From: Naegleria gruberi
Lineage: Eukaryota
Assembly: GCA_000004985.1 (NCBI GenBank)
Contig: GG738845.1
Reading direction: 5' to 3' (one strand)
Length of the DNA stretch: 64,000 nucleotides
Below are positions 1 through 61,182 of this stretch, one piece after another. Numbering within the stretch: position 1 is the stretch's first letter; each line of letters opens with the position of its first letter. The position numbers were made by a program, and so were the translations under genes. Below the pieces are notes generated by a model. It saw nothing but the letters and a program-made list of their open reading frames with translations. It had not been told where the DNA came from and made no database searches.

Positions 1-594
1 GTTTCAGCAAAGATTCGTCTATTAGATACTTCTTCTCTCAAAGCAGCCACCAAAGTGTTTGAATTGGGAATATCTGATAGTGGTAATAATATCATTGTAC
101 AAAATAGCCAGTCTATTGCAACTTTGACCATCGAAAGAGTACCCAATGGAAGAAGATCTGTTATGGCTTCTGTACGAAAATGCTTCTCATTGCAAAATAA
201 TGATTATGTACAAGATAGTACTTGTAGTATTTCTTCAGAAACCAATTCGAATATTGTCATTTCAGTCCAAAGCACTGGATCATATGTAGTTGTAGAACAA
301 CCAGCTCCAACCAGTAGTTCAGTTCAGCCAACACCTTCTGTATCAGTTGTATCTCCAGCTCATTCAACTACAACTCCGCAAACCTCAACCACCACCACAA
401 CTCCACAAACTTCTAAAGGCAGTACCAAGGTTCCAACAACAAGTGGACCAAATCTTGATTATATTGCTCTTATATTATTAATTATTCCAGTGGTACTTGT
501 TGTAGTTGGTATTATTGGATTAACTGTTTGGTTAATGAAGAAGAAGAAGAACTCAAATAAGGATACTAACTTGGTTGAATTGAGAAGTGTTTAA
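1..594 (+). CDS. 5'-partial (truncated by the window start) type I membrane protein with Ser/Thr/Pro-rich mucin-like stalk, C-terminal TM helix and short basic cytoplasmic tail
   Basis: The reading frame is open from nt 1 (no stop upstream of listed start 55). It has a TTSSVQPTPSVSVVSPAHSTTTPQTSTTTTTPQTS stalk, a hydrophobic IALILLIIPVVLVVVGIIGLTVWL segment, then KKKKNSNKD and a stop at 592-594. Confidence 0.5.
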   Translation, partial: VSAKIRLLDTSSLKAATKVFELGISDSGNNIIVQNSQSIATLTIERVPNGRRSVMASVRKCFSLQNNDYVQDSTCSISSETNSNIVISVQSTGSYVVVEQPAPTSSSVQPTPSVSVVSPAHSTTTPQTSTTTTTPQTSKGSTKVPTTSGPNLDYIALILLIIPVVLVVVGIIGLTVWLMKKKKNSNKDTNLVELRSV

Positions 595-1006
595 TAACTG
601 TTTCAAGGCTTGGAAGATAATGTGATGATATTAGTGTTGATAATGTCCTTGGTTGGTGTTAATTTTTACACTTGGAAGTCTGACAATACGTTTACTCCAC
701 AGTTTTTTATTTACCGAATCTTAATTTAAAAATAAATTCGTTTCAATTTATTTATATAAACCCATATTCCCAAGAGAAAGAGTGTTTGCCTGTATGTTTT
801 TGCAAGATTTGGAAAATCTGTAGGTGGAATAGGATGAAGAGCGTTAACCATCACAGTGTTAGTTAGATATGATTCCATTGATTCATCTTTAATTTAAGAA
901 AGAACTAGTGACCATCTTTGGGGAATTTTGTAAATAATTACTTCAAGTTTTTTGTGAGGTAGATGAAGAATCTGGAAATTTACCAGAAATTGGGAGTTGT
1001 CTCACT

Positions 1007-3094
1007 CTAATAAACTTTTGTTACCTTTAGTTTTGCACCAACTACTTTAACAAAGTGTTCAGTGTCTCTGAATAATGAATTGTCATTACGTGCAAGCTCT
1101 AATTCGTCTGCAAACAACTCCTTCAATTGTGTCAAGCATTGATCTGGAGAATATCTCTTGCAGTGATCTTCCTGAAGCATACCAGTCATGATTTGTTTGA
1201 GATTTTCATTTTGGATAGATACAGCATTTAATGGATCTTCAGCAGTAACTGGTTGTTTTGACATCATTTCTAAAACAGTCATACCCAAAGAATATACATC
1301 TCCTGTTATGGAAATTAATTTTTCCTTTTGTTTTTCAGGAGCCAAATATCCCTTTGTGCCACTCTTATTCACTATCACATCGTCGCTTTGAAAACAACAT
1401 AGTCTATCTTCATTAACTTTATGAAACAAAATTGACAATTCATAATCAATTAAAAACCAACGATTTTCAATTCTTATAATATTTTGAGGTTTGATATCAT
1501 TGTGAACAATCTTCTTCGTGAACAGAATTGTCATTTGAATCAAAATATCGGATAAAAAATGGATAATATCACTCAACTCGAAGTTTGTTTTCATTCCAAT
1601 AACATCAGCAAGACAATCACCTGCCAAACTGAATAAACCACGGTGATCGTCATTCAAATAGGGCGTTAACATAGTGTTGCGCAATCTTAAAACCATGTTC
1701 CCTTCCTCAATAACTGTGTCTTTTGAGAATACTGTAACAGAATGTTTTGGTGTTTCCTTAAAGAAAATGTCACCTTTCACTAAATTATTTCGTTTTGAGA
1801 AGTATGTAAAAGAAGAGTCCTTATTGAAGCAAACATTTCCAAACGGTTCGATGGAAATAATGGAGTTGTCTGCATACCGGTATTGCTTTTGCTTTTTGGA
1901 AGAGTCACAAACGGATGAACTAGTATGGGATTTTAGGTATTCTTGCATTTTGTTGAATTCAACGTCATAAAAAATACATAATAGAAATGCAACAAGTTCT
2001 ACTCTTCCATAATATTTTTCATCTGCTGATTTTTCTTGAATGGGCTCGTGTTCGAGAGTAACGGACGAATCAATATCTGAAAATAATTCATTAGAGCCCG
2101 AAGTACTTGTCAAAAATTCGCCTTCGTCTGCTTTCGTTATATCTATTTTCGTGCAATCATTTGAAAATGAACCAACATAGTGCAGCACATAACTCAAATC
2201 AAAATCATTTTTTGCATCATTTTCATTTTTAGTTACTAACACGTTCATAACATAAACAAAAGATTTCTTACTGCTTGTGTTCACTCCTATTGTGAAAAGT
2301 TTGGAATGGCTATCAATGATTGTTGAATCACTGGTAATAAGGTTTCTTATTGCATAGGCCAAGCTCAATCTCATTTGTATTATTAACTTCAAAAAGTCTT
2401 TATGCATATAATGATGTGTAACTATGTCTGGTTTATCTTCTCTTATCAATTTGATAACATCAATACTATCTCTGTATTTTCTAATCAAAACATCGTCTGG
2501 TTTAACACCTAAATTTATATCCTCAAATACTTCATTGTCATGAAACAAGTCTTTAACCACTTGATTTCTTTACTCTTTAGTAAAATTAAATTGTTATGAT
2601 ACATACCCACACCTGAAATAATTTTGGAAACAAACAGCCAAATCAAAAAGAGGAGAAAAGTGAGAGCCAGTTTTGGTAAGCTCTGATGTGTCTTTCCAAC
2701 CAGGTAATTCGAATCTGCTCGGAAACAAGGCTTTGAATAACAAGCAATAATTTCGACCCAAGTCCTCTTCTTTTGCAAAATCAAAAACTTTAAACACTTC
2801 ATTTGCTGTTTCATTGTTTGGTGAGTAGACAAACTTGTTGATGGCCATCAAACAATTTGTATATAAATTACTCTTCACAATTTCATGTTCGGAAGACTCT
2901 GCCAATTTAATGTTCAAGTGATAAAAACAATCTCTGAACTGACTAACGTAGTTTTGGTTTGTAGACCAATTTGATGGAATTTTGAATTCAATATTTCTAT
3001 CCTGGACACCATTTAGTGCTTGTTTCACTTTCTCTTTTACTATGGCATCAGAAAATTTACTAAATTCGTGAGTACAATAAACAAAATGCAACAT
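1007..3094 (-). CDS. Protein kinase-like domain protein (about 680 aa) with an N-terminal domain of unknown function; two exons complement(join(1007..2567,2607..3094))
   Basis: C-terminal kinase motifs are VHNDIKPQNI (catalytic loop, HND in place of HRD), DYE in the DFG position, and GTKGYLAPE. ORFs 2594..3094 and 1007..2560 join in frame across a 39-nt GTATGT...TAAAG intron (2568..2606) giving ...NYFRCG-G-NQVVKDLF. An alternative GTGTGG donor is also in frame. Other ORFs listed inside this span are nested antisense or overlapping-frame artefacts. Confidence 0.6.
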
Positions 3095-3612
3095 ACACTT
3101 TGCCTGATCCAGAGTTTGAACGTTTACGGCCAGCCATTTTGTTAATTTTTTTTTGTTATTTTTAAAAAATATTCAGGCGGGAAAAATTCGATTTGCAAAT
3201 CCCATTTATTATTTTTGGCTATCCTTACCAACTTTATCATTCGGAAATTTGTTTAATGGAATGAATTTTGTCTTTTGAATCTTTATTAAGATTGGTGCAA
3301 GACTATTTTCAATTTACATGTGCATATCTGATGAAATTAGTTGAATATTTAAATCTTCTATCTCAGTCAACAATAAGTGACAATATTTTTGATAATTATG
3401 TGAAATAATGTAGTATCTAACTCAAAGTCTTTGAAAAATTTAACGATGCCAATGAAATAACAGTTGGCCTTTATTACGCATTTGAACGTTCACAACACTA
3501 GTTTAACAAACCCAATTAGTAGAAAAATATTCCATTGTAACAACAAAGTTCACTACCAGTCAACTCGCAACTTTAAAAAAATAGCATCACTCCACAGCGC
3601 AAAAAGTTCAAA

Positions 3613-5181
3613 ATGTCACAAACAATAGATAAGGCAACAGCCTTAGAAAAAATCCCTCGCGATTATTCAACCTATTCCAAACTCTCTGCTGAATTAAAGT
3701 TGGACGTTGATGTTGTCAGAATTACCTTGCAAAAGACTGGCAGTTATTGTATTGGTCAAATACCAATGGTAGTGTTTGAAAATGATCGCTCATTGGCCTT
3801 CCTTGCCCTCTCAAAAGGTTTTTCTCTTGATAAATTACCAGCCATCTATAAAAGTGATAAGGAAATGGTCTTGATGGATTATAAGAAAAGATATTATGGT
3901 CCAATTCATGCTAACATGGACCTTTGGAATGATAAGGATTTTCTTGATCAATTACTTGTTTTAAATCCGAGCCTTGAATGATTTATCCAGATAAAAATCC
4001 ACTGGCAGTCGACGGAATCCACTCACATCTGACAAAATCCTTTCAATCCAGCGTTGGCTGGATAACACGGATACATATTACCCTCCCTTGAATATTTCCC
4101 CGAATCATTAAGGGATGACAAGGACGTTGTCACGAAACTTATTTCAAAGAATGGAAGAAAAATTGAATTTGCTTCCGATCGATTGAAGAATGATGATGAA
4201 TTGATTTTGTTGGCTTCATCAAATTCTTCAATCTTTGATTATACAAAACCTAGAGAATTATCAAAGGAACTTTGTTTGGAAATTATTCACAGACAAGGTA
4301 AGGCAAATAGAGATATTCCACCTTATTTAAAGATGGATAGAGATATTGTAAAGGCTCATTTAACTTACTTTACTAATTATTCCTATTTTACTAATGTTGA
4401 TAGGTGTTTCACTGCTGATGAAGAGATGGTTACACTTGTTCTTTCCAGAGATGTTGAACAATGGAAATACATTGATGAGTCATTGAAGAATAATGAAAAA
4501 TTCTTGGCTAAGATTTTGACTATTATTCCTTCCATTTACAAGTTTTTCCCTTTGAGCAAGCGATGCATTAAGGAAGTTGCCTTAAAAGCAATGAAATATG
4601 GTAAAAACTTATGCTTGGCAAGTGAAGCGCTCAAGAATGATAAGGATGTTGTGATGGAAGCTGTTTCAAATTCAGGCCAGTCTATTAGATATGCATCGAA
4701 GGAACTGAGACAAGATAAAAAAGTGATTGAAGCAGCTTTGAAGAATGACCCTTATGGAGTATCATACATCCTTTCAAAACTAACTGAAGAAGAAAGATTG
4801 ATTGGAACATGGAGATTCCAATTCAAGGTCGGTGAACATTCCCAATACAATCACGATCTCATGATTTTTGATTTAGTTTTGAATGCTGATTATTCATACC
4901 TTTTATTCAATCAAGATATCTCTGAAGATTACGATGCTGGGTATCCAAGAACAAGAGACAGAAAAACCACTGGTAAATGGAAAATTGGAATCTATAACAG
5001 TGTTGATGCTCTCTATTTGGATGAAAATGCTTTAATGTCCATTGCCATGTTAAATGAGTGTGCTAATTATCACAACAGAAATTGTGAACAGTTTAATGAA
5101 GAGGCTGAGAGGCATACGTACTCTCATGATAGAAAGACTTTCTCATTTGCAGATGGTGTTTGGTCTGAAAGACTTTTTTAG
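3613..5181 (+). CDS. DUF4116-repeat protein(s): ORF 3613..3981 plus open frame 4066..5181, either one gene with an unresolved junction or two adjacent paralogous genes
   Basis: Repeated ASEALKNDKDVVMEAVSNSGQSIRYASKELRQDKKVIEAALKND-type units match the DUF4116 consensus. The second frame is open from 4066 with no ATG; the listed start at 4183 is TTG. The first ORF ends NPSLE* and the second frame begins ...LPSLEYFPESLRDDKDVV, repeating the same motif, with no GT..AG intron candidate between them. Confidence 0.55.
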
Positions 5182-6344: not shown

Positions 6345-7038
6345 ATGTCACGACTTGCAAAGCCATCTTGGCTCACAAAAGATTTTTCAAAAACATTTTA
6401 TGATTCACAAGGATTGATTGAAGAGGATGTCTCACTATTACTCGGAAATTATTGGCTGAATGATAATATTATCAATTTTTATTACTTGTTTTTGGAGAAT
6501 GAAAAATTCAGAGAATATTGTTTTGTTGCACCATCTGTTTCTTTCATTATTTCCATGGTTGATGATGATGAAATTAAAAATACATTACATTCACTAAATG
6601 CAAAGGATAAAAAACTTGTATTTTTCCCAGTGACTGACAATACAGACATTTCATCTTCAGGAGGAACACATTGGAGCTTATTAGTTTTTGAAAGTAATTC
6701 TGGAAAATTCTATTATTTTGATTCAATGGGATCCATGAACAAGTCAGCTGCCAAATATCTTGCCTCAAAGGTGGCTCCATATTTTGGTGTGAAAGCTTCC
6801 AATTTACATATTGCTAAAGCTCCTCAACAAAAAAAGTAAGTGCAACAATTGAGTTATATTGGATAAATATTCTACCAGTGGATATGATTGTGGAATTTAT
6901 GTATTGGCAATGAGTGAATATATTGCAGAGCATGGTCTTTCAGATGCTCAAATCGAATCAGAAATTACACCTTCAAAAGCTACCCAATTGAGAAAGGTTA
7001 TTTTGGATTTAATTGAAAAGAAATCCCAAGAAGAATAA
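6345..7038 (+). CDS. SENP8: Deneddylase / sentrin-specific protease 8 (Ulp1 C48 family, SENP8/DEN1-like); two exons join(6345..6835,6879..7038)
   Basis: LNDNIINFYYLFL, VFFPVTDNTDISSSGGTHWSLLVF (catalytic His) and YFDSMG align with human SENP8. The catalytic Cys motif NGYDCGIYVLAMSEYI appears only after removing a 43-nt GTAAGT...ACCAG intron (6836..6878) in phase 2. The stop is TAA at 7036-7038. Confidence 0.85.
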
Positions 7039-7317: not shown

Positions 7318-8961
7318 ATGAAAATTCAAAATTTTGCGATCATTGTGTTGACAACATTGTTGTTGTGTTGTTTTGTGTTTATTTGTTTCTTGATAAATGG
7401 ATATTCGAAATGTTTGAATCACCAGACAGGCATAATTAATCATGATGTGCACAAGTTGGCACTGATTGATTCCGATAGGGTGAGAGAAATTCCTCTCATC
7501 AACAAGAAGGTACCTCCTTCAGCTGTTATTCTCCCCAGAAATTTGCATCAACAGCTCCAACCAGTTCTTTCTATACCTCCCACAAAAATGACAAAGGAAC
7601 TCGAAATTGAACAAGAGGAAAAAACAATGGATGATTCGGAAAATATCATTGTTGCAAATCCAAATAAGTTTCCACCCAAACCATTACCAGACGAACCAAC
7701 ATTGCAAGGTAATCCCAACGAAACCAGTAATCCATTATGTGTAGATAAACGAAAGAGAGATTACAAACAGGTACCAATCAGAGTATCAGGACTTTTTAAT
7801 GGGGAATTTAGAGATTGTAGCATTAGGTGTGTTGGAGATGGCTATCCAAATCAACCAAGTTTACCTGATGTGTATGTGGGACGAGATGCTCCTCCTGATG
7901 GCTGTCCAAACTCTTTTTCCTTCATTTCTACAATGGAAAATCAACCAATGTTCAAGACCAATATCCACAGTTTAGTAGGTACGACTAATTTAAAAACTGA
8001 CGTTCCAGTTCAATATTTTAGTTGGGCTGAATATAGTTACATGAGCAAACCAAAACCAAAAACAGCAACTGCAATGATGGCGGTTTTCATTTCAAATTGT
8101 GGACCACCAAAACGATTGGAAATCATCAAGGAATTGGAGGAACACGGAGTTACAATCCATTCATATGGTAAATGTTTGCACAACACACAAATGCCAGATA
8201 CAAGAGATGGTGACTATTTGGGAATTAAAACTCGGATTACCTCCACTTACAAATTCGTATTTGCAGCTGAAAATTCAGAAACTGACGATTATGTCACTGA
8301 GAAACTTTTTGGAACATTTGATTCTGGAAGTGTTCCAGTTTATTTGGGAGCTCCAAATGTTAAAAAGTTTGCCCCAAGTGAAAAATCCGTCATTTCAGTT
8401 TCTGATTTTGCGACCATTAAGGAATTAGCAGAATATTTGAAAATGTTAGATAAGGATGATGTAAAATACAATGAATATTTGAAATGGAAGGAAGAAGGAC
8501 CATCACATGATTTTATTGCCATGATGGATATGGCTATTATACACTCTTCATGCAGATTGTGCATCAAAGTTGCAGATCACTACAGAAAGATTTACAACAA
8601 CCAGGTTGGAAATCAAATAATTCCAAAAGATAAACTTGGAAAGGACAGCATTATTGTGAGCGTTAGACCAAGAGGAGAATTCTACATGAAACAAGTTGAA
8701 CTATTACCAAATGAAATGAGTCTCAAACATCTCAAGAGAAAGATACAGAAATTGTATGCTGATAATCCTCTTCCTGTCGGATCTATTCACTCCATTTACA
8801 GATTATGGGACAATAACAAGATACCAATCAAGGATGAAGACTTTAGAAATGGTATTATTCACAATAGTATTGAGTTGGAGGTTATATTCCTTTATCCTTA
8901 TCATCCAGGAAGAGGAAAATTCAATGAGTGGCAACAAACTCACAAATTCTACCTTCATTAA
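7318..8961 (+). CDS. GT10-family alpha-1,3-fucosyltransferase, type II membrane topology, paralog A
   Basis: N-terminal TM anchor IIVLTTLLLCCFVFICFLI. Catalytic region has FISNCGPPKRLEIIKELEEHGVTIHSYGKC, YKFVFAAENSETDDYVTEKLF (GT10 motif), then a ~150-aa C-terminal extension. Confidence 0.8.
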   Translation: MKIQNFAIIVLTTLLLCCFVFICFLINGYSKCLNHQTGIINHDVHKLALIDSDRVREIPLINKKVPPSAVILPRNLHQQLQPVLSIPPTKMTKELEIEQEEKTMDDSENIIVANPNKFPPKPLPDEPTLQGNPNETSNPLCVDKRKRDYKQVPIRVSGLFNGEFRDCSIRCVGDGYPNQPSLPDVYVGRDAPPDGCPNSFSFISTMENQPMFKTNIHSLVGTTNLKTDVPVQYFSWAEYSYMSKPKPKTATAMMAVFISNCGPPKRLEIIKELEEHGVTIHSYGKCLHNTQMPDTRDGDYLGIKTRITSTYKFVFAAENSETDDYVTEKLFGTFDSGSVPVYLGAPNVKKFAPSEKSVISVSDFATIKELAEYLKMLDKDDVKYNEYLKWKEEGPSHDFIAMMDMAIIHSSCRLCIKVADHYRKIYNNQVGNQIIPKDKLGKDSIIVSVRPRGEFYMKQVELLPNEMSLKHLKRKIQKLYADNPLPVGSIHSIYRLWDNNKIPIKDEDFRNGIIHNSIELEVIFLYPYHPGRGKFNEWQQTHKFYLH

Positions 8962-9088
8962 CTTGTGGTAAAGTTTGGAAAACCACACTTGATATAGATG
9001 TAGGTTCAGCTCAGTGTAATAATTTTAAAAAGTGCAACAACACCAAAAATTCATCCCTGCATTTTCCTCTAAAAATTATTCTGCTCCT

Positions 9089-10795
9089 ATGAAAACTCTA
9101 CAAATTATAACAATAGTACAGACGGCCCTGTTATTGTGCTGCTTTGTTGTTATAACCATCCTAATTAACAAATATTCTCTCCTTGTAAAGGAAATTAATA
9201 GTTCAAAATTACATCAATATTCTTCCCTAAATCTAAATTTGATTAAGCTTACATCACCACCCGAGACAACAATAACATCTTCCATTGTGATAAAACCACA
9301 AAAAACCTCATCACAACAACCTCCGATTAGAGAGCAATCGCCCATTGCACCATCGTCACCTGTACTCACACCTACAACAAAAGTTAATGATAAGGAGGAT
9401 CCAATAGACAAGACTCGAACCAAACTTACGACTTTGAACCTCAGTAGGAGGGAAAAACTATTGAGGGATAAGCAAAATGGATCAAACAAATCGGTCAGTC
9501 ACAACACTGAAGTGACATCCATTGAAAATCAAGACAAGCAGGTATATCAGATACCTCTTAACGGTGGAAGGGAATTAGCCAATTGCCCAGATAACGAGAA
9601 TAGAGATTATAACGAAAATCCAATTAAGGTCAGAGGTAAATTTACAGGCGAGTTGACCAATTGTCCAATAAGATGTGTTGGAGAGGCAAACCCACCAGAT
9701 GTGTTTTCTGGGAGAGATTCACCTAGTGGTGGTTGTCCACACGCATTTTCGTATCAATTTACCATGGAAAATATTAAATTGAGAAAGGCATCCACCCATA
9801 GTTTAATAGGTACAACTGATTTATCTTCAGATGTTCCAGTTCAATATTTTAGCTGGGCTGAATATAGTTATATGGACCCACCAAAGAATAAGACAGCAAC
9901 TGCAATGATGGCGGTTTTCATTTCAAATTGTGGACCACCAAAACGATTGAATATCATCAAGGAATTGGAGGAACATGGAGTTACAATCCATTCATATGGT
10001 AAATGTTTGCACAACACACAAATGCCAGATACAAGAGATGGTGACTATTTGGGCATCAAGACAAGATTAACTTCGACATACAAATTCGTATTTGCAGCTG
10101 AAAATTCAGAAACTGACGATTATGTCACTGAAAAATTGTTCGGAACATTTGACTCTGGAAGTGTTCCAGTTTATTTGGGAGCTCCAAATGTTAAAAAATT
10201 CTTACCACACGAGAAGTCAATTATTTCAGTTTCTGATTTTGCAACCATTAAGGAATTAGCAGAATATTTGAAAATGTTAGATAAGGATGATGAAAAATAC
10301 AATGAATATTTGAAATGGAAGGAAGAAGGACCATCACATGATTTTATTGCCATGATGGATCTGTCAATTTTGCACTCTTCATGCAGATTGTGCATAAAGG
10401 TGGCTGACTATCACAGAAAGATTTACAACAACCAAATCGGTCACCAGCTCATTCCTAAGGAAGACCTCAAAGAAGGTAGTATAGTGGTGAATGTTAGACC
10501 AAGAGGAGAATTCTACATGAGACAGATCGAATTATTACCAAATGAAATGAGTCTAAGACAGCTCAAAAAAAAGATACAAACACTCTATGCCAAAGAAGAA
10601 GCAACACTGGGATCTATTTACTCCATTTACAGATTATGGGATAAGAACAAGACACCAATTCAGGACAAGGATATGAGAAATGGTGTAATTTACAACAATG
10701 TAGATCTGGAAATCATCTTCCTCTATCCATATCACAAAGGTAGAGGAAAATTCAATGAGTGGCAACAAACTCACAACACCTTTAACCTACATTAA
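9089..10795 (+). CDS. GT10-family alpha-1,3-fucosyltransferase, paralog B (tandem duplicate of 7318..8961) with Ser/Thr/Pro-rich stem
   Basis: Same motifs as paralog A. The listed start at 9032 is GTG; the first ATG (MKTLQIITIVQTALLLCCFVV TM anchor) is at 9089. Catalytic-core nucleotides 9833..10360 are about 93-95% identical to 8002..8530, while the flanks are diverged. Confidence 0.8.
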   Translation: MKTLQIITIVQTALLLCCFVVITILINKYSLLVKEINSSKLHQYSSLNLNLIKLTSPPETTITSSIVIKPQKTSSQQPPIREQSPIAPSSPVLTPTTKVNDKEDPIDKTRTKLTTLNLSRREKLLRDKQNGSNKSVSHNTEVTSIENQDKQVYQIPLNGGRELANCPDNENRDYNENPIKVRGKFTGELTNCPIRCVGEANPPDVFSGRDSPSGGCPHAFSYQFTMENIKLRKASTHSLIGTTDLSSDVPVQYFSWAEYSYMDPPKNKTATAMMAVFISNCGPPKRLNIIKELEEHGVTIHSYGKCLHNTQMPDTRDGDYLGIKTRLTSTYKFVFAAENSETDDYVTEKLFGTFDSGSVPVYLGAPNVKKFLPHEKSIISVSDFATIKELAEYLKMLDKDDEKYNEYLKWKEEGPSHDFIAMMDLSILHSSCRLCIKVADYHRKIYNNQIGHQLIPKEDLKEGSIVVNVRPRGEFYMRQIELLPNEMSLRQLKKKIQTLYAKEEATLGSIYSIYRLWDKNKTPIQDKDMRNGVIYNNVDLEIIFLYPYHKGRGKFNEWQQTHNTFNLH

Positions 10796-10890
10796 AATAA
10801 TCTTCAATCTAGATCAATAGTCTTTCGATTAGTAATCCAAATATTATTTTCAATAAAACAGAAAGAAGCGGAAAAGTCAATCAAAAAAAA

Positions 10891-11379
10891 ATGCTTGCTC
10901 GTCAACGTCTTATTCTCTCATCAGCCATTCGTACCAACAAGGTTGCTGCTTCTTGTTTGGTTCGTAATTTCTCCACCTCCCAAAGAGTATTTGGAGATGA
11001 AAGTGGATTCCATGATGACTTTAAAACTGTCCGTAAACCACCACAAGTTAATATTAATGAATTGATGGAAAAGAAGAAGGAAGAAATACAAAAGATTATC
11101 GAATCTAACAATATTGTTTTATTTATGAAAGGAACACCACAAAGACCTGAATGCGGATTTTCTGGTGCTGTTGTTCAAGTTTTGAAACTCTACGATGTTG
11201 AATATCATTCCGAAAATATGAATAAGGATACCATGATGAAGGAAGCTTTGAAGGAATATTCCGATTGGCCAACAATTCCTCAATTATATGTTAATGGTAA
11301 ATTTATTGGTGGAAGTGATATTGTTTTGAATTATCATAAGAATCACGAATTCCAAGATGTTTTGGATGGTAAATTGTAA
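10891..11379 (+). CDS. GRX5: Mitochondrial monothiol glutaredoxin (Grx5 type, CGFS active site)
   Basis: N-terminal presequence-like MLARQRLILSSAIRTNKVAAS. KGTPQRPECGFSGAVVQVL and WPTIPQLYVNGKFIGGSDIV match Grx5. Confidence 0.9.
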   Translation: MLARQRLILSSAIRTNKVAASCLVRNFSTSQRVFGDESGFHDDFKTVRKPPQVNINELMEKKKEEIQKIIESNNIVLFMKGTPQRPECGFSGAVVQVLKLYDVEYHSENMNKDTMMKEALKEYSDWPTIPQLYVNGKFIGGSDIVLNYHKNHEFQDVLDGKL

Positions 11380-11716
11380 TAATTTGAATAAATTATTTAA
11401 TTGTACTTGAGTAACACCACTTACAATCTAAATATTGTAACATCTGAGCCAACTTCTGATTCAGGCAACCAAGTGAGAGAATCCATAATTAGTAGTTCAA
11501 CATACTCTCTTTATAAATTATTGAGTGATGAAATCAAATTATTCAACACAAGATCCAACAAGCTCAGAAAAATGGCTAAATCAAGCAGTGGTCATTTTGC
11601 TTTTTACCTTAAAACTCATTTAAAACTCATGGAATAATTGATGGTTAATAGTATAATTTATTTGGGTTTGTTATTTTGGGTAGTAGTTGAGTTTTAGAGA
11701 TCTATCAGCAAATTGT

Positions 11717-14700
11717 TTAAATTCTGTTATTTCTCATGAGGGATTGGTAATTGAAAGAGGTTGGGGATGGAGATTCAGTATTATTGACATCAGAGTGTAA
11801 GGAAACCAAAGATAAATCCAATGGAAGAGCAGCTTTTGGATCTCTTTCCAAGTTTTGTGGAATTTTGTGGAAACCAAACTTTTTAGCCAAATCAGTTGGG
11901 TGTTGAGGAGGATTTAAGAAACCACACTTGCACAAGAAGCAATAGTAAGTGGTCATCAATTCAATAACCTTTGGACAAGTAACATTGGAATTTTCCAAAC
12001 CTTCCAAAGTGTGAGTGTTATCATACCATGGACGCTTGGCAGTCATCTTCAAGTCATAATCATCAGTGAAATAGGTTACCAATGGATACAATACATTTTC
12101 TTCAACAACCTTTCCAGTTTCAGTTTCAGCACTTTTATCTCTATTAACAGTAGCTTGATATAACTTTTCCTTCCATTCCTTGAATGGCAATGGCTTGATA
12201 CTGTAACCAAGCTTGTTACCACATTCGAATAATGAATTGAAGAAGAATTCGTGAGGATTGACCAAGTGATAAGCTTGATGTTTAACAACAGAGTCCATAG
12301 TTCTTGACAAGTGAACAATGGCACCAGAAATGAAATCAACAGGAGACATATCCAACTTGGAGAGTGGCATATCTGGATAGTAACCCATTTGGATACAACC
12401 CTTAATCATACGACACAAGAAGTCATCTGGATTCCAGACACCAGTCTTGGCGTGACCTGTAATATAACCTGGTCTGTAGATACAAACTGGTAAACCTCTC
12501 ATACGAGCATTCATGCACAACTTTTCAGCAACATACTTGGATTGTGGATAACCAGTCAAATCTTCGTGATATGGAAGTGTGGAATCTTCATAGACATCAG
12601 TGAATTCCTTATATTGTTCAGAGTCAAAAACAGATGTTGTGGAAACATAGTGAACTGGAGTCAACTTTTGACCAGCACAAGCCATCTTTAAAATTTCACG
12701 AGTACCATTAACGTTGGAGGCCTTCAACTTGTCATAACTGTAGAGCCAATGGACAGCGGCACCATTGTGAACAATGATATCAATAATGTTGGTCATTTCT
12801 TCAAACTTGTTTTCATTCAAACCCAACAATGGTTTAGTCAAATCTCCCAAAACTGGAATAATTCTCATTTCAACAACTTGAGCCAAGTTATTTCTGTTAA
12901 TAGAGTTGACAGAGTCCATTTCTTCTTCTTGATCCATTTCCTTAGAAGTCCACAAGAAGTGATATGACAAGAGGGATTCCAAAATACGTTTTCTGGCCTT
13001 TTCTTCATTTTCAGCTCTAACCAAACAGTAAATCTTGGCAGTTGACTTCTTCAAAAAGTCAGCCAACAAGAATGTACCCAAGAAACCAGTACATCCAGTA
13101 ATCAAAATGTTCTTTGGATTTTGCCAAACCTTGGAATAGGAAATGAAATCGTTAAAGTTCAATTGATGTTGAGGTCTGATAAATGCTTCCAAGTGAGTAT
13201 CCATAGAAACATCTTGAATCAAGTGTTGATTTTTGGTTTGACCACTTCTCAATTGTTCAATAGCAACAGCGAGAGCAGAGATGGTTGGAGCTCTGAACAA
13301 TAATTCAACTGGGAGTTTTTGAGCACCTTCAACTTGATTTCTGATCAACAAGGTCAATGTTGTAGCATTGATAGAGTGACCACCCAAATCAAAGAAGTTA
13401 TCATGGATACCAATGTTATCAGTGTTACCACGTGATAAAACATCAGCCCAAATTTGTTGTAATTGCTTTTCCAAATCATTTCTTGGAGCAACATATCCTT
13501 CTTCATCACCAGAATCCAAAGATGGCATGTGAATTGGATTTGGTAAATCTTGTTTTTTGATTTTACCGTTTGGAGTCAATGGAATCTTTTCCAATGGAAC
13601 AAAGTATGAAGGAATCATATAATCTGGTAATCTGGTTCTGATGTGTTGTCTCAAATCCTTAATGATGGTCTTGATTATACTAGATTCCATATAATTTCCA
13701 TTCTTGGCGTTGAGGGTAGAATTCTTTTCTAATTCAACCTTATCCAAAACAAAGTATGTAACAATACGCTTTTCATTTTGAATGCAATCTTCTCTGACAA
13801 TGGTAACACTTTCCTTAACAAATTCGTGAGAGTTCAGACAGGTGTTAATTTCACCCAATTCAATTCTGAAACCTCTAATCTTAATTTGGTCATCAGCTCT
13901 ACCACTGCATTCAGCATCACCACTAATTAAATATCTACCCAAGTCACCAGTTCTGTACATTCTATCCACATAACCACTGGTCATGAATGGATTTGGAATG
14001 AACTTTTCACGAGTATCCTTTTCCTTACCCTTATAACCTTGAGAAAGATGAGGAGATCTCATGTAAATTTCACCCATTTCACCAATACCTGACAACATGA
14101 ATTTGTTATCACGAGAAGTGAATCTGCTCAATGTCAATGCTTGAACATCTTGCATACCTCTACCGATTGGTAAAATATCCTTCAATTGTTCGAAAGGAAT
14201 ACCAGTTTCAATACACTTTTCACCTGGACGTGGGACCATATAGTAGGTAACAGAACGTTGAGTTTCAGTTGATCCATACAAGTTGATAACCTTAACGATT
14301 GGTGCAATGTCACACAATCTCTTAACGAATTTCTTAGACAAGACATCACCAACAAAGAATGCATATCTCAAATGATTCAATTGGAACAATTGAGATGATG
14401 TGTTAATGACAGATGCAGCAGTAGCCAACAATTGACCCATTGGTGGAGTCAAACAACAAACTGTAATCTTCTTTTCTTCGAACCATTCAGCAAGACGACC
14501 TGGATTGACAATATCTTCATTAGATGGAATATACATGGTACATCCCAAGAACCATGGAGTAAAAATGTCACGTTGCAAAGGATCGTGAGAAATACCAGAT
14601 TGCATTGAGAATCTGTCATTTTCACTAAAGCCAAAATATTGTTTCATCCATGGATAATAGTGAGTGAGAGGACCGTGTCTTCCCAAAACACCCTTTGGAA

Positions 14701-16126
14701 TACCAGTACTTCCTGATGTATAGGTGCAAACAGCAAAGTCATCTTGTGTAATTTTAACATTCAAAGTTGGATCTTCACTCAAATTGGAATCGTTATAATC
14801 AGAGTAGACATTCTCATTAAGAATATCAGTCATGGATTTCAATACTGTTACAAACTTGGTCTTTTCATTGATAAAATCAATGACAGACTTTGGTAATTGA
14901 CCAGCAGCTTCAATTAAAATAACTGCAGATGGTGTTGAAACTTCCAAACAAGTGATAATTCTGTCGGCTGGATAAGCAGGATCTAACATGTTAAAAATTG
15001 CACCACATTTCAATGTAGACAAGATGGCCAACACAACTGGACAAGATCTGTGACCAAAGATTGTCACAACCTCCTGTCTCTTCAATCCCTTATGAAGTAA
15101 GTGTCTTGATAACTGATTGGAAACTCGATTCAATTGTTCAAAGGTAACACTTTCATGATTATCAACCATGGTAATTCTATCTGGTGTTTGTTTAGCCTGT
15201 TCTTGGAAAATTTCATGAATTGGACCAATGAAATCGTTATTCAAAGCTTTATCAGGGTGTGGTAAAACCTTCTTGGCATATTCAGTCACCAAACTGATAT
15301 CATAAATAGAGACATTGCAATTACTCGACAATACTTGTTCAGAAACTAATTTCAATTGATTCAATAATTCAGCCATTCTCAATTCTGTGAACAAGTTATT
15401 TTGATAAATGATACTGAGTTCGTTAGATTGAGTATTGTAGTGTAAATTTAAATCAACATTAGAAATAGGGAATGGTTTGTCCACCTTAGTGAATGGACCG
15501 GCATAGGAACTATAAGAAACTTGAACGAGTAAATTTGTATCAATATTACCAGCATTAGCATTGTTAGACAAAAATTGTTCGAGAATATTCTTTACATTAT
15601 TGAAATATGATAAATGATTCAATGAATCATTGTATGATTGTTGAATATTGGAAAGTAACTTTTTAAAACTATACTTTTCAGTAGCATCACTTTGTGAAAT
15701 ACCTTCAAATGTATCTTCTTCATTGGAAGGCATTGGAATATTGGCTGACAAGATGAATGAATCCTTTTCTTCATTACAATCTTGCAATACACCAATTAAA
15801 AAGGTTTCTTCATATGTATATCTACATAATAATACAACAAATAAGGAGAGAATGAATGAATTCTTAGTAAATAATTGTTGTGCCTCTGAATCTCCATTCT
15901 TGATAAACAGTTCTCTAAATTTGCTACTATTCAACACTTGTTCCATTGAAATGGTATATTCTAATGGTTTATACTCAACTTGGGTAGTAGAGGTAGTAGA
16001 AGTTGATGAAGCTGCTTCATCATTTAACATAACTCTAGGATAATCAGTTGGCAATTTCAAACTTTGATTTTGACTCAACAATTGTGACCAAAACGACAAT
16101 TGTTTTTCCTTCAACAATGAGGCCAT
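11717..16126 (-). CDS. LYS2: L-2-aminoadipate reductase (Lys2): NRPS-like adenylation-thiolation-NAD(P)H reductase domain protein, about 1470 aa
   Basis: Long collinear matches to S. cerevisiae Lys2: TYTSGSTGIPKGVLGRH, HDPLQRDIFTP, PGRLAEW, YRTGDLGRY, GRADDQIKIRGFRIELGEI, NGKIKK, FFDLGGHSINAT (phosphopantetheine Ser), ITGCTGFLGTFLLADFL (Rossmann) and YPQSKYVAEKL. The listed start at 16192 is GTG; the first ATG (MASLLKEKQ) is at 16126. Confidence 0.9.
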   Translation of the reverse strand: MASLLKEKQLSFWSQLLSQNQSLKLPTDYPRVMLNDEAASSTSTTSTTQVEYKPLEYTISMEQVLNSSKFRELFIKNGDSEAQQLFTKNSFILSLFVVLLCRYTYEETFLIGVLQDCNEEKDSFILSANIPMPSNEEDTFEGISQSDATEKYSFKKLLSNIQQSYNDSLNHLSYFNNVKNILEQFLSNNANAGNIDTNLLVQVSYSSYAGPFTKVDKPFPISNVDLNLHYNTQSNELSIIYQNNLFTELRMAELLNQLKLVSEQVLSSNCNVSIYDISLVTEYAKKVLPHPDKALNNDFIGPIHEIFQEQAKQTPDRITMVDNHESVTFEQLNRVSNQLSRHLLHKGLKRQEVVTIFGHRSCPVVLAILSTLKCGAIFNMLDPAYPADRIITCLEVSTPSAVILIEAAGQLPKSVIDFINEKTKFVTVLKSMTDILNENVYSDYNDSNLSEDPTLNVKITQDDFAVCTYTSGSTGIPKGVLGRHGPLTHYYPWMKQYFGFSENDRFSMQSGISHDPLQRDIFTPWFLGCTMYIPSNEDIVNPGRLAEWFEEKKITVCCLTPPMGQLLATAASVINTSSQLFQLNHLRYAFFVGDVLSKKFVKRLCDIAPIVKVINLYGSTETQRSVTYYMVPRPGEKCIETGIPFEQLKDILPIGRGMQDVQALTLSRFTSRDNKFMLSGIGEMGEIYMRSPHLSQGYKGKEKDTREKFIPNPFMTSGYVDRMYRTGDLGRYLISGDAECSGRADDQIKIRGFRIELGEINTCLNSHEFVKESVTIVREDCIQNEKRIVTYFVLDKVELEKNSTLNAKNGNYMESSIIKTIIKDLRQHIRTRLPDYMIPSYFVPLEKIPLTPNGKIKKQDLPNPIHMPSLDSGDEEGYVAPRNDLEKQLQQIWADVLSRGNTDNIGIHDNFFDLGGHSINATTLTLLIRNQVEGAQKLPVELLFRAPTISALAVAIEQLRSGQTKNQHLIQDVSMDTHLEAFIRPQHQLNFNDFISYSKVWQNPKNILITGCTGFLGTFLLADFLKKSTAKIYCLVRAENEEKARKRILESLLSYHFLWTSKEMDQEEEMDSVNSINRNNLAQVVEMRIIPVLGDLTKPLLGLNENKFEEMTNIIDIIVHNGAAVHWLYSYDKLKASNVNGTREILKMACAGQKLTPVHYVSTTSVFDSEQYKEFTDVYEDSTLPYHEDLTGYPQSKYVAEKLCMNARMRGLPVCIYRPGYITGHAKTGVWNPDDFLCRMIKGCIQMGYYPDMPLSKLDMSPVDFISGAIVHLSRTMDSVVKHQAYHLVNPHEFFFNSLFECGNKLGYSIKPLPFKEWKEKLYQATVNRDKSAETETGKVVEENVLYPLVTYFTDDYDLKMTAKRPWYDNTHTLEGLENSNVTCPKVIELMTTYYCFLCKCGFLNPPQHPTDLAKKFGFHKIPQNLERDPKAALPLDLSLVSLHSDVNNTESPSPTSFNYQSLMRNNRI

Positions 16127-17770
16127 GATGCAATTAAAGTGATGATGATTTGAAAAATGTAAATTTACAATGATACTCGAAAGTAGTAACACACTAGTTA
16201 ACTAGTAGTAGGGGAAGGGGAATATGTGTGCAAGTAGCAGAGCAGCAGCAGCAACAGAGAGAACAATTGAATGAATAGAAACAACACAGTCTTGTTGTAG
16301 AGTTGTTTTTTTCGCTCTTTTTCGTGGTGCATCTCCACAGAGACCAAAAGTAAAACGCGAGAGGTGAATCCACATTTTAAATATCAAGCCATTTGAATTT
16401 ATTTGGCGATTTTTCCTCTAGGGATTTTGGGTCATTTCAATTAAAATTCAGCGAATATGTTTAAATTTTCCACTGTGTTGCACTACAATTTACAATGGTG
16501 ATGATGTGTTTGTTGAGGAGAAATTTATAGAAGTTTAAAAGTTGTTTTAAAATTATTGAAAATACATGTATTTCATAGTATTCAATGAATGAAGGCACAG
16601 AGGAAGGATGGGAGAAATGAGGAGTAACAACATTTATGTGACCTCAAATTTACAACACACTTCAAATAACCAAGGGGGGACATAGTTATTTTTAGACAAG
16701 CTACTTGCACGGTAAAGTTTTGAAGCAACCATAGGGAGAAAGGCTTTGCTTTCTTTCTTGATATATACAATAAATGGTGAAATGAAGATTTCAGAATAGA
16801 CAGTCAACTCAATGGTATATCTAAAACTTTTTTCTGTTTTTTTGGTATTATTGTAGTTATTGTGTAATATTAGTGTAAAGTTCCCATAACATTTAAAGTA
16901 CCATACCATTGATATTTTCTCGCCACCATTTGAGAGATAGGTGAATAGTATCTATATAATTATACTCTAAAGAGCCGAGTCGTCAGAATCAGTATTGATC
17001 TTGGTGTATCCCACAGGAGGTAAGTAGTAGGAAATACTTCGTCAAAAAATGACTAGCGAAATTTTGTTGTAAAGAGATGAGTATTATGTCTATATATAAA
17101 CAACCTCAGCCAATAAAAATTCATGGATTCGTTATAATAGATATATATTATCAGTGGTAAAATATTTGTCTGTCAATATGACTTATTAGAGTAATGTAAA
17201 CTTGATGAAAGTTGTTCGTCATTTTATCATTATTTTATAATAAGGAAAAAAATTAGTTGGTAAACTATACTTATTTTTGGAGTAAATAATTGATTTCAAT
17301 CAACTATTATTTCTATAACCGTTTCTGCTAATGTCTATAAACGACTGGAAAAATATGAGAACAAACAAGCATAAATTTATTTATTAAATTAGCACAGGAT
17401 AATAGAATAGTGAAAATCCAGTTGTTTATTCAATTTTGATGGAAACTGATTTTCTTTTCAAAAAATTGTCATCTTATGCATTCATTGAAGCTCAAAAATA
17501 AATTTTTTTATTTATTTTAATTGAAAATAATGAGTTTCTTGTACCATAATATTTTTTAAAAAATGTATGACTTCAACAAATTCTTCACTATGTCCCCCCT
17601 TGCAAATAACTCCGTAAAATTATAATTGTTTGTTTTTAGAATACTTTACATTTGTGTTTGGCCGTATTACTCTCCTTTTAAATCATGTTGTAACGGTCGT
17701 CTCAATTTCATTTATGACATTTTAACCTTATTTAAGATTTACATTACTCCTGTGGAGGGATTTTGGTTTA

Positions 17771-50678: not shown

Positions 50679-51346
50679 ACTCAGTATTTCAGAAACGACA
50701 ATTTATGTCGTTGTCAAAACGCATCCGGGCTCCCTTTAAACAATCCTAATACCAATCAATTAACACCTGAGAATGATAAACCTACTTGGGAGGAAGATTT
50801 TAATAATCATTTCGAACCATGGTCACCTACTAGATTCGAAGGTGGTGAAATTCAATTCCAATTTAAAGGAACAGAGTCTGCACTTTATTCTAGAATTAGT
50901 AATGATGAGACAAATCTCTATCAATTAAATGATCTTCCAAAGTTCGAACAATTTTGCAAACGAACATACTCTAGAATCAGAACACAACTCATGTCCAATT
51001 GTCAGGCCCATATTTCCATCACAGGCATGGTAAGAAGTGGAAAAACCACAATAGCCAGAGAAATATTTCCTTTTTTCTACACTAGAGAAACTAAATATAC
51101 CTCCTATAAAATATATATAAATTAACGATAATTAATTGGATTTACAATGGTAATACTAAGCCAATAGTTGAATTTTTAAACAAAAACCCTTCAACCATGC
51201 ACTACATTATATTTAACGAAATACAGCTATGTGATACAGATGTTTTATCAATCCTTAAAAAGATTTTCAAAATACCTCAATTGATAGGGAGAAACTTATT
51301 AAGTATTTGGATAGGAAATACACAAGCAGTGTTATTGAAAAGTTGA
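50679..51346 (+). pseudogene. Frameshift-decayed AAA+/P-loop ATPase relic (Walker A GMVRSGKTTIAREIF; Walker B-like YIIFNEIQ)
   Basis: The frame opening at 50679 (no ATG) reads ...FEPWSPTRFEGGEIQFQFKG...QAHISITGMVRSGKTTIAREIFPFFYTRETKYTSYKIYIN* (stop 51123-51125). The +1 frame from 51110 continues ...KPIVEFLNKNPSTMHYIIFNEIQLCDTDVLSILKKIFKIPQLIGRNLLSIWIGNTQAVLLKS* (stop 51344-51346). The frames swap inside a TATAAAATATATATAAAT tract. Walker A to Walker B spacing is about 50-60 aa. Confidence 0.5.
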
Positions 51347-53160
51347 AAATGATTCCTTCGAATGCCTATTCTTTTAATGATAACTGTTTTACTATAACAT
51401 ATTATAGGATGGAAGTTTAAAAATTTAAAAGAATTAAAAGTATATTGCAACTACAGAGAAAAAAAGATTATAAATATAGTGAAGATTTTTGATAGAGATT
51501 TTGCTAAAACTAGATCTCAGTAGATTAATTAAAGAACCAACTTAAAACCAAGTTTTATCAATACCTTAGTCGATAATGAAATTAATTGAAAATTAAGAAG
51601 CTAAATAAATTTTCAAAAGGTTATATATTTGAAATTTAGAAAAGCTTAACAAAGTAATATAAAATACAAAGACCATTAATTTTTAAAAATCTTCTTAAGT
51701 TGGTTTATCATTTTTAAGAATCTAAAGAAAATGAATTTAAAGAAAGAACAAACTTTGTAAAAATATAACAAAAACATTGTTATTGGGTCATACTATTCCA
51801 CCATTCTTTTTTAATATCAATTAGGTCTACCTTAGAGATTCATAATTCATATCGAGATTGATATGAAATATTCATTTTTTGTAAATGGAAAGTGAATCCC
51901 TTATAATATTATTATATACACCAAGCTATTTTGGGAGACTTTTGAAACCTTTTTTGTTGAAGTTTGTTGTATTGGGAAAAACAAACTCACCAAATTGTTA
52001 AAAAAAGTCAAACAGAACACAAAAAAACATTAATTACAATATTCATAATTTTATTAGCAAAAAAAGGAAATTTATTGTATCCTACAGGACTTTCATTTTA
52101 GGTTTTTGTTTGGATTATTGGTACATAATTTGAACACTTGATGTATTTTGGAGTTTATAATATCTCCTTGATATTGAATGTAATGTCATTATGATCAATT
52201 AAAAATCAATATTCTTCCAAAAAAATTCTGAAATACTAAGTTTATTCTACTATACGCGTGTACATTAATTGCTATTAGCTTAAAAAACCATCTGATCAAT
52301 TCAATAAACCATAAAACCAAATCTGAAATATCTATTCTAACAATTTATTATATGATTTGTGTGTTTAGTTAATTTTTAAATTTAATGCAGAGAATAAATT
52401 ATAGAGTTTTCGTCTTGTTCTTGATATCCACCACCCAACAATTTCTTTAGATAATTGGATATCCAAATAAAAATAACATTTTACTAGATCTGAAATTTCT
52501 ATAGAAGTCTTGTTTTGTATTGTTATTTTGTGTTAAGGTGATAAGTAAATTTTTCAATAATGACAGACCTAATAAACACCTTCAAATTTTACATTATTTT
52601 TCATCAAGAAAACATCTTGAAAAAATGATTTAAGAAAGAAAAATCCAATCCATCATTAATGGTTGGAATATTCAAAACAATCTGATAAGTTGTAGCTATC
52701 ATTGAAACATCTTAATGGTATAAATGGTCCGCATTGAATTTAATAAAGTGCTTTTTATTAAGGTTTGAAAGTTACTAAGATCAAATAAATTATCTGGCAC
52801 CATAAAGTAAAAAAAATGAAACTACCCTCACAACCACACAAAATATTCAATAGGATTTATAATAATAATGAAAGAAATAATTTAATAGATGGCACAGAAA
52901 TACAAGTCCATTATTTTACTAAATTATTTTATAACAATACAAATATTAATTTACCACTAAACAAAACAACATTATTAGGAAAAAAAGGAAATATAGTTAA
53001 CTCCTTTGTTAAATTAATTCATCAATACTTTATTCGGAACCTAATTGAAGATTCTAAGTTGTATTGTTTTCTAGTAATTGTTATATATTGTACTTTGAAT
53101 ATCGTTGTTCAATTCATCGATAATCAATTTCAATTCATTTCTACAAACAACAACTTCTGA

Positions 53161-53750: not shown

Positions 53751-53934
53751 ACCAGTATTTTATAAATCAAAACACACTAACAAGAACCACTGATCCAACC
53801 ATAACAACACATTTAATGAAACCGAAGTACTTTAATACAATATTATACTAAGAAAACTCCAACACACCACTCTCAAAATTAAAAACTCAATCTTCCTTAT
53901 TGCAGCCATATGATTTGAAACCACGAATAAAATT

Positions 53935-54025
53935 TGATGAGTGTGGGATTTGAACCCACGCCCTTGCGGAACACGGTATTAATCATACCTTAACGTGTCG
54001 TCTTAGACCACTCGACCAACTCACC
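53935..54025 (-). tRNA. tRNA-Leu (anticodon AAG) with 11-nt intron at the canonical 37/38 position
   Basis: Minus-strand sequence GGTGAGTTGGTCGAGTGGTCTAAGACGACACGTTAAGG[TATGATTAATA]CCGTGTTCCGCAAGGGCGTGGGTTCAAATCCCACACTCATCA. Acceptor GGTGAGT/ACTCATC (one G-U pair), discriminator A73, GGTCTAAG D-loop, anticodon stem ACACG/CGTGT with loop T-T-AAG-G-C, an 11-nt type II variable arm, T-arm GTGGG-TTCAAAT-CCCAC, and a downstream T-run terminator. Confidence 0.8.
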
Positions 54026-54281
54026 ATCTCTTAAATTTTTTAATATTACTATTATGTTGATTTTTGAGGAAATACTTCCAAATTATTTAATCCCTTGTGT
54101 CATGACGTTTTTGATTAACATTTAATCCATTCCATTGCTATCAGAAATACCTTTAAAATATCTGTCGTATTTAAACGTGTTGAAGCTCTTCTAGTTTAAA
54201 GCCAAACATACTTGAAACAGACCACACTCATTTTAATTATTCGTGCTTCGCACTTTCGAATTCATTTTTAAAAAAATAACC

Positions 54282-61017: not shown

Positions 61018-61182
61018 TTTTTTTGAATTTCAATTTAAAAATGAAAAATGTTAAATTGATGAGAATTTTGCAACTTTCTTGTGAGGTTAATTAGAAAATA
61101 CGAAATCTAAGTCATACCATGTACTTGAATAGATTAATTGTTTCCACACCACTTCTAACATGATAAGGTAAGCAACAAAATT

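Follow-up and report, generated by a model that had tools for sequence, protein, structure and literature searches.

Gene conversion between tandem paralogs is a general, textbook phenomenon, and FUT11-type enzymes of glycosyltransferase family 10 (GT10) are well characterised in plants. Here we describe two neighbouring genes, A and B, predicted to encode enzymes of this type, which lie head to tail in a 64-kb stretch of Naegleria gruberi DNA (contig GG738845.1, assembly GCA_000004985.1; 64,000 nucleotides (nt), hereafter the window). Silent differences between the two genes are markedly fewer in a core centred on the predicted GDP-fucose donor domain than on either side of it, and interlocus gene conversion of this core is the best explanation, one that we hold with considerable confidence.

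The most closely related enzyme of known structure is Arabidopsis FUT11 (AtFUT11 or FucTA, glycoprotein 3-α-L-fucosyltransferase A; PDB 9S6A), whose fold comprises an acceptor subdomain at the N-terminus (residues 88-200), the source of the catalytic base Glu158, then the donor Rossmann domain (201-347) and finally a second Rossmann subdomain (348-501) (PMC12929593). A and B belong to the same GT10 family and share this three-part architecture, and both copies keep the catalytic base, the N-glycan contacts and the donor contacts Ser218, Lys256 and Glu280. They differ from AtFUT11 in being only ~33% identical to it, in having His at the position of Arg248, in lacking Cys391, in carrying an amoeba-specific Cys and in having longer stems; an activity of A and B on N-glycans is, as for other heterolobosean enzymes, a predicted one. 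Animal FUT10 and FUT11 (POFUT3 and POFUT4) have a conserved GDP-fucose pocket and an extra C-terminal region for substrate contact (PMC11949838). These are GT10 enzymes like A and B, but they are protein O-fucosyltransferases of the endoplasmic reticulum that act on EMI domains. That A and B keep the N-glycan-binding residues of AtFUT11 favours a core-fucosyltransferase function over a POFUT3/POFUT4-like one, and no structure of the latter kind was among the PDB matches.

As for the process, conversion between clustered fucosyltransferase paralogs has been described for mammalian FUT1, FUT2 and Sec1, for example in leporids, where mosaic genes are found (PMC4398370). Non-allelic conversion between neighbouring fucosyltransferase paralogs is also what we propose for A and B, although the mammalian genes belong to GT11 rather than GT10 and to another kingdom, and A and B have no known link to pathogen-driven polymorphism. 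Other GT10 sequences from Heterolobosea and Amoebozoa (N. lovaniensis C9374_003455, a N. fowleri protein, an array on an uncultured heterolobosean-like contig, L001, and sequences from Planoprotostelium and Dictyostelium) belong to the same subfamily and have the C-terminal subdomain conserved throughout. The A/B pair differs from these in forming a clade of its own, sister to all of them, and in lying at a non-syntenic locus, and the L001 pair has no homogenised core. In sum, the A/B locus represents real but ordinary gene conversion and no new kind of system; what is new is modest, namely uncharacterised members of the family from Heterolobosea, a conversion block that matches a structural domain, and possible polymorphism within a species.

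Divergence along the pair

A and B were compared by codon alignment, with synonymous divergence (dS) calculated by NG86 and silent differences counted at codons that specify the same amino acid in both genes. The profile of synonymous divergence proved uneven rather than uniform along the genes. In the core (8020-8562; 93% protein and 91% nucleotide identity), dS was 0.33 and nonsynonymous divergence (dN) 0.05, and 23 of 160 same-amino-acid codons differed, as compared with a dS of 1.22, a dN of 0.34 and 17 of 47 such codons in the N-terminal catalytic part (7750-8019; 56% and 66% identity) and a dS of 1.65, a dN of 0.17 and 34 of 89 codons in the C-terminal part (8563-8958; 70% and 75% identity). 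In the membrane anchor (first 30 codons; 60% protein and 61% nucleotide identity) dS was saturated, with 13 of 17 same-amino-acid codons differing (76%), and in the stem (7408-7749; 23% and 43% identity, 15/25) dS is not meaningful because the sequences cannot be aligned. The fraction of differing same-amino-acid codons is therefore 14% in the core and 36-38% in the two flanks (23/160 versus 51/136; Fisher p = 6.7e-6), and four-fold sites show the same difference (7/59 in the core versus 20/45 in the flanks). Values of dN/dS were ~0.28 for the N-terminal acceptor subdomain, 0.15 for the core and 0.10 for the C-terminal part, and the flank values of 0.10-0.28 indicate purifying selection, under which the anchor, the stem and the two acceptor subdomains are taken to have diverged.

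A two-breakpoint maximum chi-square scan of third positions delimited a homogenised block of ~560 bp, inside which 31 of 187 positions differed and outside which 99 of 211 did. The chi-square value of 41.5 was reached in none of 500 shuffles, the highest shuffled value being 18.1, and the clustering of differences was likewise supported by a runs test, in which none of 20000 shuffles reached the observed value. The left boundary of the block, 8002, is identical to that given in the initial annotation, and the right boundary lies ~30 nt past the end of the interval given there. The 93-95% nucleotide identity that had been claimed for 8002..8530 did not hold for the interval as a whole, which is 91.3% identical, but was reached in sub-tracts of the core (93.0% for 8020-8220, 95.6% for 8250-8364 and 95.8% for 8394-8562). 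The block approximates the GDP-fucose donor Rossmann domain (AtFUT11 201-347), which corresponds to A nt 8041..8502 and in which the A and B proteins are 94% identical; for the two acceptor subdomains, the figures are 57% and 72-75%.

Within the block, the ~50 differences between A and B form a structured mosaic. Identical runs of 77, 67, 57, 53, 49 and 44 nt alternate with two islands of ~30 nt, where differences are mostly silent, at saturation and present in nearly every codon, while the tracts outside the islands have a dS of 0.09-0.18. Two more short identical patches occur in the C-terminal part (8662-8689 and 8911-8945). This mosaic is the pattern expected from several short conversion tracts or from patchy heteroduplex repair.

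Since purifying selection acts on the protein and cannot keep silent sites unchanged, a constraint on silent sites was sought in relatives. Between the N. lovaniensis and N. fowleri orthologs (L002 and L003), the fraction of differing same-amino-acid codons was 0.24-0.59 over the whole gene, and in the tandem pair of metagenome contig L001 it was 0.34-0.70 throughout; neither control showed a dip in the core, indicating that low silent divergence is a property of the A/B pair and not of the domain. The gene conversion suggested in the initial annotation is thus supported by the low dS of the block relative to both flanks and to the saturated anchor, with no dip in the control pairs. The pair provides a statistically solid example of domain-restricted conversion between tandem glycosyltransferase genes whose acceptor subdomains are diverging.

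Proposed history of the pair

Region-wise neighbour-joining trees of the N-terminal acceptor subdomain, the core and the C-terminal part, each with 12 relatives, placed A and B as sisters with bootstrap values of 91, 100 and 98, respectively. Judged by these trees, in which the two are sisters in all three regions, the duplication is specific to this lineage. A dS above 1 in the flanks makes it old, and the homology of the membrane anchors shows that it took in the whole gene; neither observation supports the other origin that had been offered, a very recent duplication with stem swapping. The N-terminal stem regions had also been called unrelated, which is true of the stems proper (not alignable, 23% protein identity) but not of the first 30 codons, and the C-terminal regions, although diverged as claimed, are not extensions but an integral second acceptor subdomain of the FUT11-type fold.

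We propose that a whole gene was long ago duplicated in tandem in the Naegleria lineage and that repeated short interlocus (non-allelic) conversion events would then have re-homogenised ~560 bp encoding the donor Rossmann domain, leaving the two islands unconverted, while the stems would have drifted apart after the duplication. As the most conserved part of the protein, the donor domain may have retained enough DNA identity for continued recombination, so that homogenisation would be self-reinforcing. Conversion was probably confined to the donor module because constraint on the protein keeps the DNA similar enough there for recombination. Taken as a whole, this account of an old lineage-specific tandem duplication and repeated core conversion of a FUT11-type pair in Naegleria seems likely to us. 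The analysis itself shows the gene structure, the family and fold, the conservation of residues, the mosaic of synonymous sites and the taxonomy; the mechanism of conversion, the specificity of the enzymes and any division of labour between them are what we infer.

A contig from the same species

A metagenome contig of 5720 nt in ENA (L005; sample ERR1078381, assembled with MEGAHIT, k127) was found through an exact protein match to the glutaredoxin gene downstream of B, and aligns to 9910..15610 of the window. Because its Lys2 coding sequence is 99.5% identical to that of the window, with a dS of 0.023, L005 comes from the same species. Its GT10 fragment (L005 1..886) can be compared with both 8079..8961 and 9910..10795 of the window. 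The first ~384 nt, which correspond to B 9910-10293, are A-type at 32 of 32 sites that discriminate A from B, including both islands, and from the next discriminating site on, beyond the core, the contig is B-type at 105 sites. The switch from A to B falls inside the identical run of 67 nt at 8463-8529, and the start of the contig lies in the one of 57 nt.

This pattern fits a B allele recently overwritten by A, an A/B hybrid formed by unequal crossover, or an assembly chimera, and is compatible with continuing exchange. A chimera made by metagenome assembly could account for the hybrid, given a contig that starts within the repeat; at 77 nt, the longest stretch identical in A and B is shorter than the final assembly k of 127, which points neither way. 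Exact-protein look-ups for A, the upstream Ulp1-like ORF and TAF13 yielded no further alleles of the species, and a JGI metagenome scan for them gave only one distant locus (31% identity). We offer only tentatively the fuller proposal that L005 is a real allele, either a B with its donor domain overwritten by A or an unequal-crossover fusion of the two, and that exchange is current and polymorphic within the species, postdating the split of the strains, between two core-fucosylating enzymes of distinct specificity. If true, L005 would show directly that homologous recombination is active at a glycosylation locus of a free-living amoeba, and the pair would retain one shared donor module as its two acceptor modules diverge, which would leave Naegleria with two core-fucosylating enzymes that differ in specificity. 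To our knowledge, a sexual cycle has never been observed in Naegleria.

Alternative explanations

A recent whole-gene duplication without conversion could leave the core alike through the strongest purifying selection while the flanks evolve fast under relaxed or positive selection. In accord with this, conservation between species likewise peaks in the core, which shares 66-71% protein identity with other heterolobosean sequences as against 42-50% for the flanks, and A and B are sisters everywhere in the trees. However, selection acting on the protein leaves silent sites free to change, and it is these that differ between core and flanks to the extent given above; neither the orthologs nor the L001 tandem pair shows a silent-site dip in the core; and the flank dN/dS values denote purifying, not relaxed, selection. 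We consider such a history highly improbable. The silent sites of the core might instead be held by a constraint on DNA or RNA, such as codon usage, the structure of the mRNA or an element that overlaps on the opposite strand; in both copies, mechanically called ORFs of 74-109 amino acids (aa) do run across the core, in other reading frames and on the opposite strand. Such ORFs are expected in AT-rich DNA, though, and are doubled merely because the DNA is, silent differences in the core of the two control pairs, with fractions of 0.24-0.57 and 0.34-0.65, resemble those in the rest of the gene, and the block contains two saturated islands in its middle and has an unremarkable G+C content at third codon positions (GC3), making this the least credible of the alternatives.

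Consensus errors classically arise at near-identical tandem repeats, raising the possibility that the two cores were partly collapsed or cross-corrected during assembly or polishing. An artefact of this kind is very unlikely, as the differences that remain form a structured mosaic with no identical run longer than 77 nt, both ORFs are intact, and the independent assembly L005 reproduces the 3' 500 nt of B at 99.2% and an A-type core at 99.7%. Somewhat easier to entertain, but still unlikely, is that a third GT10 paralog, located in another part of the genome, served as the donor, or that a single segmental replacement was followed by local hypermutation that made the islands. The islands need some explanation, and relatives do have several GT10 genes (at least three in tandem in L001, and a gene at a separate locus in N. 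fowleri and N. lovaniensis); however, the window holds no third copy, the islands differ mainly at silent sites and at saturation, as expected of old divergence that escaped conversion rather than of new mutation, and both islands are A-type in L005.

Several observations weigh against conversion between A and B as we propose it. There is no phylogenetic incongruence, A and B being sisters in the flanks too, so the case is one of synonymous-rate heterogeneity in a single pair. No orthologous pair was found in a sister species, either among protein matches or in the JGI metagenome scan, and without such a pair from another species the incongruence test is uninformative. A signature of GC-biased conversion was absent, GC3 being 0.29-0.31 in the block versus 0.24-0.41 in the flanks, which in itself does not speak against conversion, and a third paralog lying outside the window could have been the donor.

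Enzyme family and predicted function

The presence of two head-to-tail GT10 paralogs, as proposed in the initial annotation, was borne out by intact ORFs and by matches to the GT10 profile PF00852 with E ~1e-38 (A, 131.3 bits, E 4e-38; B, 129.9 bits, E 1e-37; cut-off 23.9 bits). By sequence, the closest solved structure is PDB 9s6a_A (A, E 2.8e-57; B, E 3.8e-53), followed by mango FUT13, human FUT9 and H. pylori FucT; the sequence alignment covers residues 17-343 of the 9s6a chain, with the match to AtFUT11 extending up to aa 476. An AlphaFold model of A aa 130-547 had a mean predicted local distance difference test score (pLDDT) of 94.3 and a predicted template modelling (TM) score (pTM) of 0.91. 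Its top Foldseek match was again 9s6a_A (E 2e-31, TM 0.77/0.78, 33% identity over 412 columns, with 418 residues in the model and 410 in the 9s6a chain), and all Foldseek matches with E <1e-7 were GT10 structures (9s6a, 7yro, 8d0o/8d0w, 2nzw/2nzx/2nzy and 5zoi), in agreement with a GT-B fold.

Residues were mapped by HMMER alignment to 9s6a, with domain limits and residue roles taken from PMC12929593 (Table 1). The predicted catalytic base lies inside a TME motif that aligns with the plant SME motif, the N-glycan-contact Tyr and Glu lie in a YFSWAEY motif conserved in A and B, and the α1,3-fucosyltransferase donor motif (FxxxFENSxxxDYVTEK) has the form KFVFAAENSETDDYVTEKLF in both. Eight luminal cysteines are common to A and B. 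AtFUT11 has three inter-subdomain disulfides; equivalents of its Cys124, Cys128, Cys364 and Cys367 occur in A and B, while Cys391 is absent and there are instead a Cys upstream of the RDY motif (A141 / B166) and the amoeba-specific Cys (A196 / B216). On this sequence and model evidence, A and B are predicted GDP-fucose-dependent GT10 enzymes of the plant FUT11/FucTA type with a core α1,3-fucosyltransferase architecture. Both are probably active, given the intact ORFs, the retained catalytic and donor-binding residues, and the dN/dS values of 0.10-0.28.

Homology and the retained N-glycan-contact residues make α1,3-fucosylation of the innermost N-acetylglucosamine (GlcNAc) of N-glycans, in the Golgi, the most likely reaction, although we put its chances at about even. 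The hydrophobic N-terminal anchor and long stem seen in the translations of A and B are typical of type II Golgi glycosyltransferases, and a Golgi localisation is predicted on that basis. Some points tell against this assignment. The plant Cys91-Cys391 disulfide cannot form as in AtFUT11, since A has Asp and B has Glu at position 391, and both copies have His in place of Arg248. Moreover, animal FUT10 and FUT11, which are GT10 enzymes with a C-terminal extension, have proved to be protein O-fucosyltransferases (PMC11949838). A search for literature on Naegleria fucosyltransferases or N-glycan fucosylation returned nothing relevant.

The diverged acceptor subdomains, stems and anchors suggest that A and B may have different acceptor preferences or locations. 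If both are of FUT11 type, they predict core α1,3-fucosylated N-glycans in Naegleria; we know of no description of such glycans in Heterolobosea. In plants and invertebrates, core α1,3-fucosylated N-glycans are immunogenic epitopes. The results are of use for annotation, and the locus may serve as a recombination marker in Naegleria populations.

Lineage and distribution of the subfamily

The initial annotation had inferred a fungal source from the Lys2-type α-aminoadipate reductase encoded downstream, and on that premise noted that GT10 enzymes are uncommon in fungi and might here be of horizontal origin. Neither the fungal source nor the rarity and horizontal origin was sustained. The Lys2-type protein is 77% identical to a cluster with N. 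lovaniensis and N. fowleri members, 74% to N. fowleri, 66% to Willaertia magna and 50% to Acrasis kona, as compared with ~33-35% to fungi. Because its closest relatives are those of Naegleria, Willaertia and Acrasis (50-77%), with fungi at ~35%, this fungal-type lysine-pathway enzyme is native to Heterolobosea. N. fowleri has more than one Lys2-type copy.

For GT10, the best named matches were to N. lovaniensis (56%) and N. fowleri (51%), and members of this subfamily are also present in other Naegleria, among uncultured relatives and in Planoprotostelium and Dictyostelium. As far as these sequence matches indicate, the subfamily is native to the lineage, widespread in it and tandemly expanded, an outcome that the initial annotation had itself named as refuting its view. 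Horizontal transfer was rejected, as the nearest relatives are in the host's own genus and the composition is native. The GC content of the A and B genes, 0.35-0.37, is like that of the window (~33%). This base composition of the window, together with long ORFs free of introns, suits a Naegleria species other than the fowleri/lovaniensis pair and probably one resembling the N. gruberi group. The chief value of the analysis is this correction: with the source a Naegleria amoeba and not a fungus, the taxonomic oddity of GT10 vanishes.

On the uncultured heterolobosean-like contig L001 (42% GC), at least three GT10 genes lie head to tail at 311..3899, the third cut off, with an N-terminus that matches P0008. 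The flanks of the L001 array are not homologous to those of the window, the ORF downstream being the third GT10 gene. Synteny that might date the duplication was not found, the GT10 loci of N. lovaniensis and N. fowleri and the Lys2 locus of N. fowleri having other neighbours.

Gene layout and other features of the window

Both ORFs are intact and on the + strand (Table 1), and the proteins are 61% identical overall. For B, the mechanically called ORF starts at GTG 9032, and ATG 9089 aligns with the start of A. DNA similarity detectable by BLAST covers 7863..8961 and 9694..10795 (82.5% over 1106 nt, at a constant offset of 1831) and does not extend past the stop codons; DNA in the flanks and between the genes is unrelated, and the spacer 8962..9088 resembles neither the DNA upstream of A nor that downstream of B.

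Table 1. Coordinates of the A/B pair, its predicted domains and mapped residues, and the neighbouring Lys2-type gene.
Feature	Position or residue in A (or in window)	Position or residue in B	Strand	Basis or remark
Gene A, predicted FUT11-type GT10 fucosyltransferase, type II membrane protein, 547 aa	7318..8961		+	Intact ORF, PF00852
Gene B, paralog of A, 568 aa		9089..10795	+	ORF and PF00852; ATG aligned with start of A
Homogenised block, approximately the donor Rossmann domain plus 13-20 codons on each side	8002..8562		+	Maximum chi-square scan
Homogenised block, partner at offset 1831		9833..10393	+	Maximum chi-square scan
Island 1	8221..8249	10052..10080	+	Same-amino-acid codons differing 8/9; four-fold sites 5/5
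Island 2	8365..8393	10196..10224	+	Same-amino-acid codons differing 5/7; 3 replacements; saturated
Signal-anchor (transmembrane) segment of A, AIIVLTTLLLCCFVFICFLIN	7336..7398		+	Hydrophobic run in translation
Signal-anchor segment of B		9104..9169	+	Hydrophobic run in translation
Stem of A	7408..7749		+	Not alignable with stem of B
Stem of B, longer, Pro/Ser/Thr-rich		9179..~9595	+	Not alignable with stem of A
N-terminal acceptor subdomain of A (= AtFUT11 104-200), holds Glu207	7753..8040		+	HMMER alignment to 9s6a
Main part of second acceptor (Rossmann) subdomain of A; subdomain starts at ~8503	8563..8958		+	Sequence and structure alignment to AtFUT11
A-B spacer, 127 nt	8962..9088		+	Sequence comparison
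Equivalent of AtFUT11 Glu158 (catalytic base)	E207 (nt 7936)	E227		Conserved
Equivalents of AtFUT11 Tyr192, Glu197 (N-glycan contacts)	Y233, E238	Y253, E258		Conserved
Equivalent of AtFUT11 Ser218 (donor contact)	S259	S279		Conserved
Equivalent of AtFUT11 Lys256 (donor contact)	K304	K324		Conserved
Equivalent of AtFUT11 Glu280 (donor contact)	E328	E348		Conserved
Equivalent of AtFUT11 Arg248	H288	H308		His replaces Arg in both
Equivalent of AtFUT11 Cys391	D438	E458		Cys absent in both
Lys2-type α-aminoadipate reductase	11717..16192		-	Adenylation, carrier and reductase domains

Upstream of A, coding seems to resume in another frame after a short gap downstream of a Ulp1/C48 protease-like ORF (6345..6839, + strand), since the sequence at ~6860-7040, which encodes ...YDCGIYVLAMSEYI..., appears to continue that protein. 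This suggests that the Ulp1/C48-like gene contains a small intron and ends near 7040 instead of at 6839.

Elsewhere in the window, two 115-nt repeats on the - strand (53926..54040 and 61174..61288) are 97% identical and 7248 nt apart. Each holds a tRNA gene of 93 nt (Rfam tRNA, 47.4 bits) with an anticodon that ARAGORN could not name, and the two probably represent duplicate tRNA genes with introns. GC content drops to 0.24-0.25 over 51001..53000, as against ~0.33 for the window, and just downstream of this trough is a direct repeat of 114 nt (53152-53265 and 53474-53587, 85% identical). Two coding tandem repeats occur on the - strand, one at 55499..55850 (a repeat family with an 85-nt reference copy) in ORF 55445..56674 and the other at 61948..62355 (108-nt period) in ORF 61608..62411.

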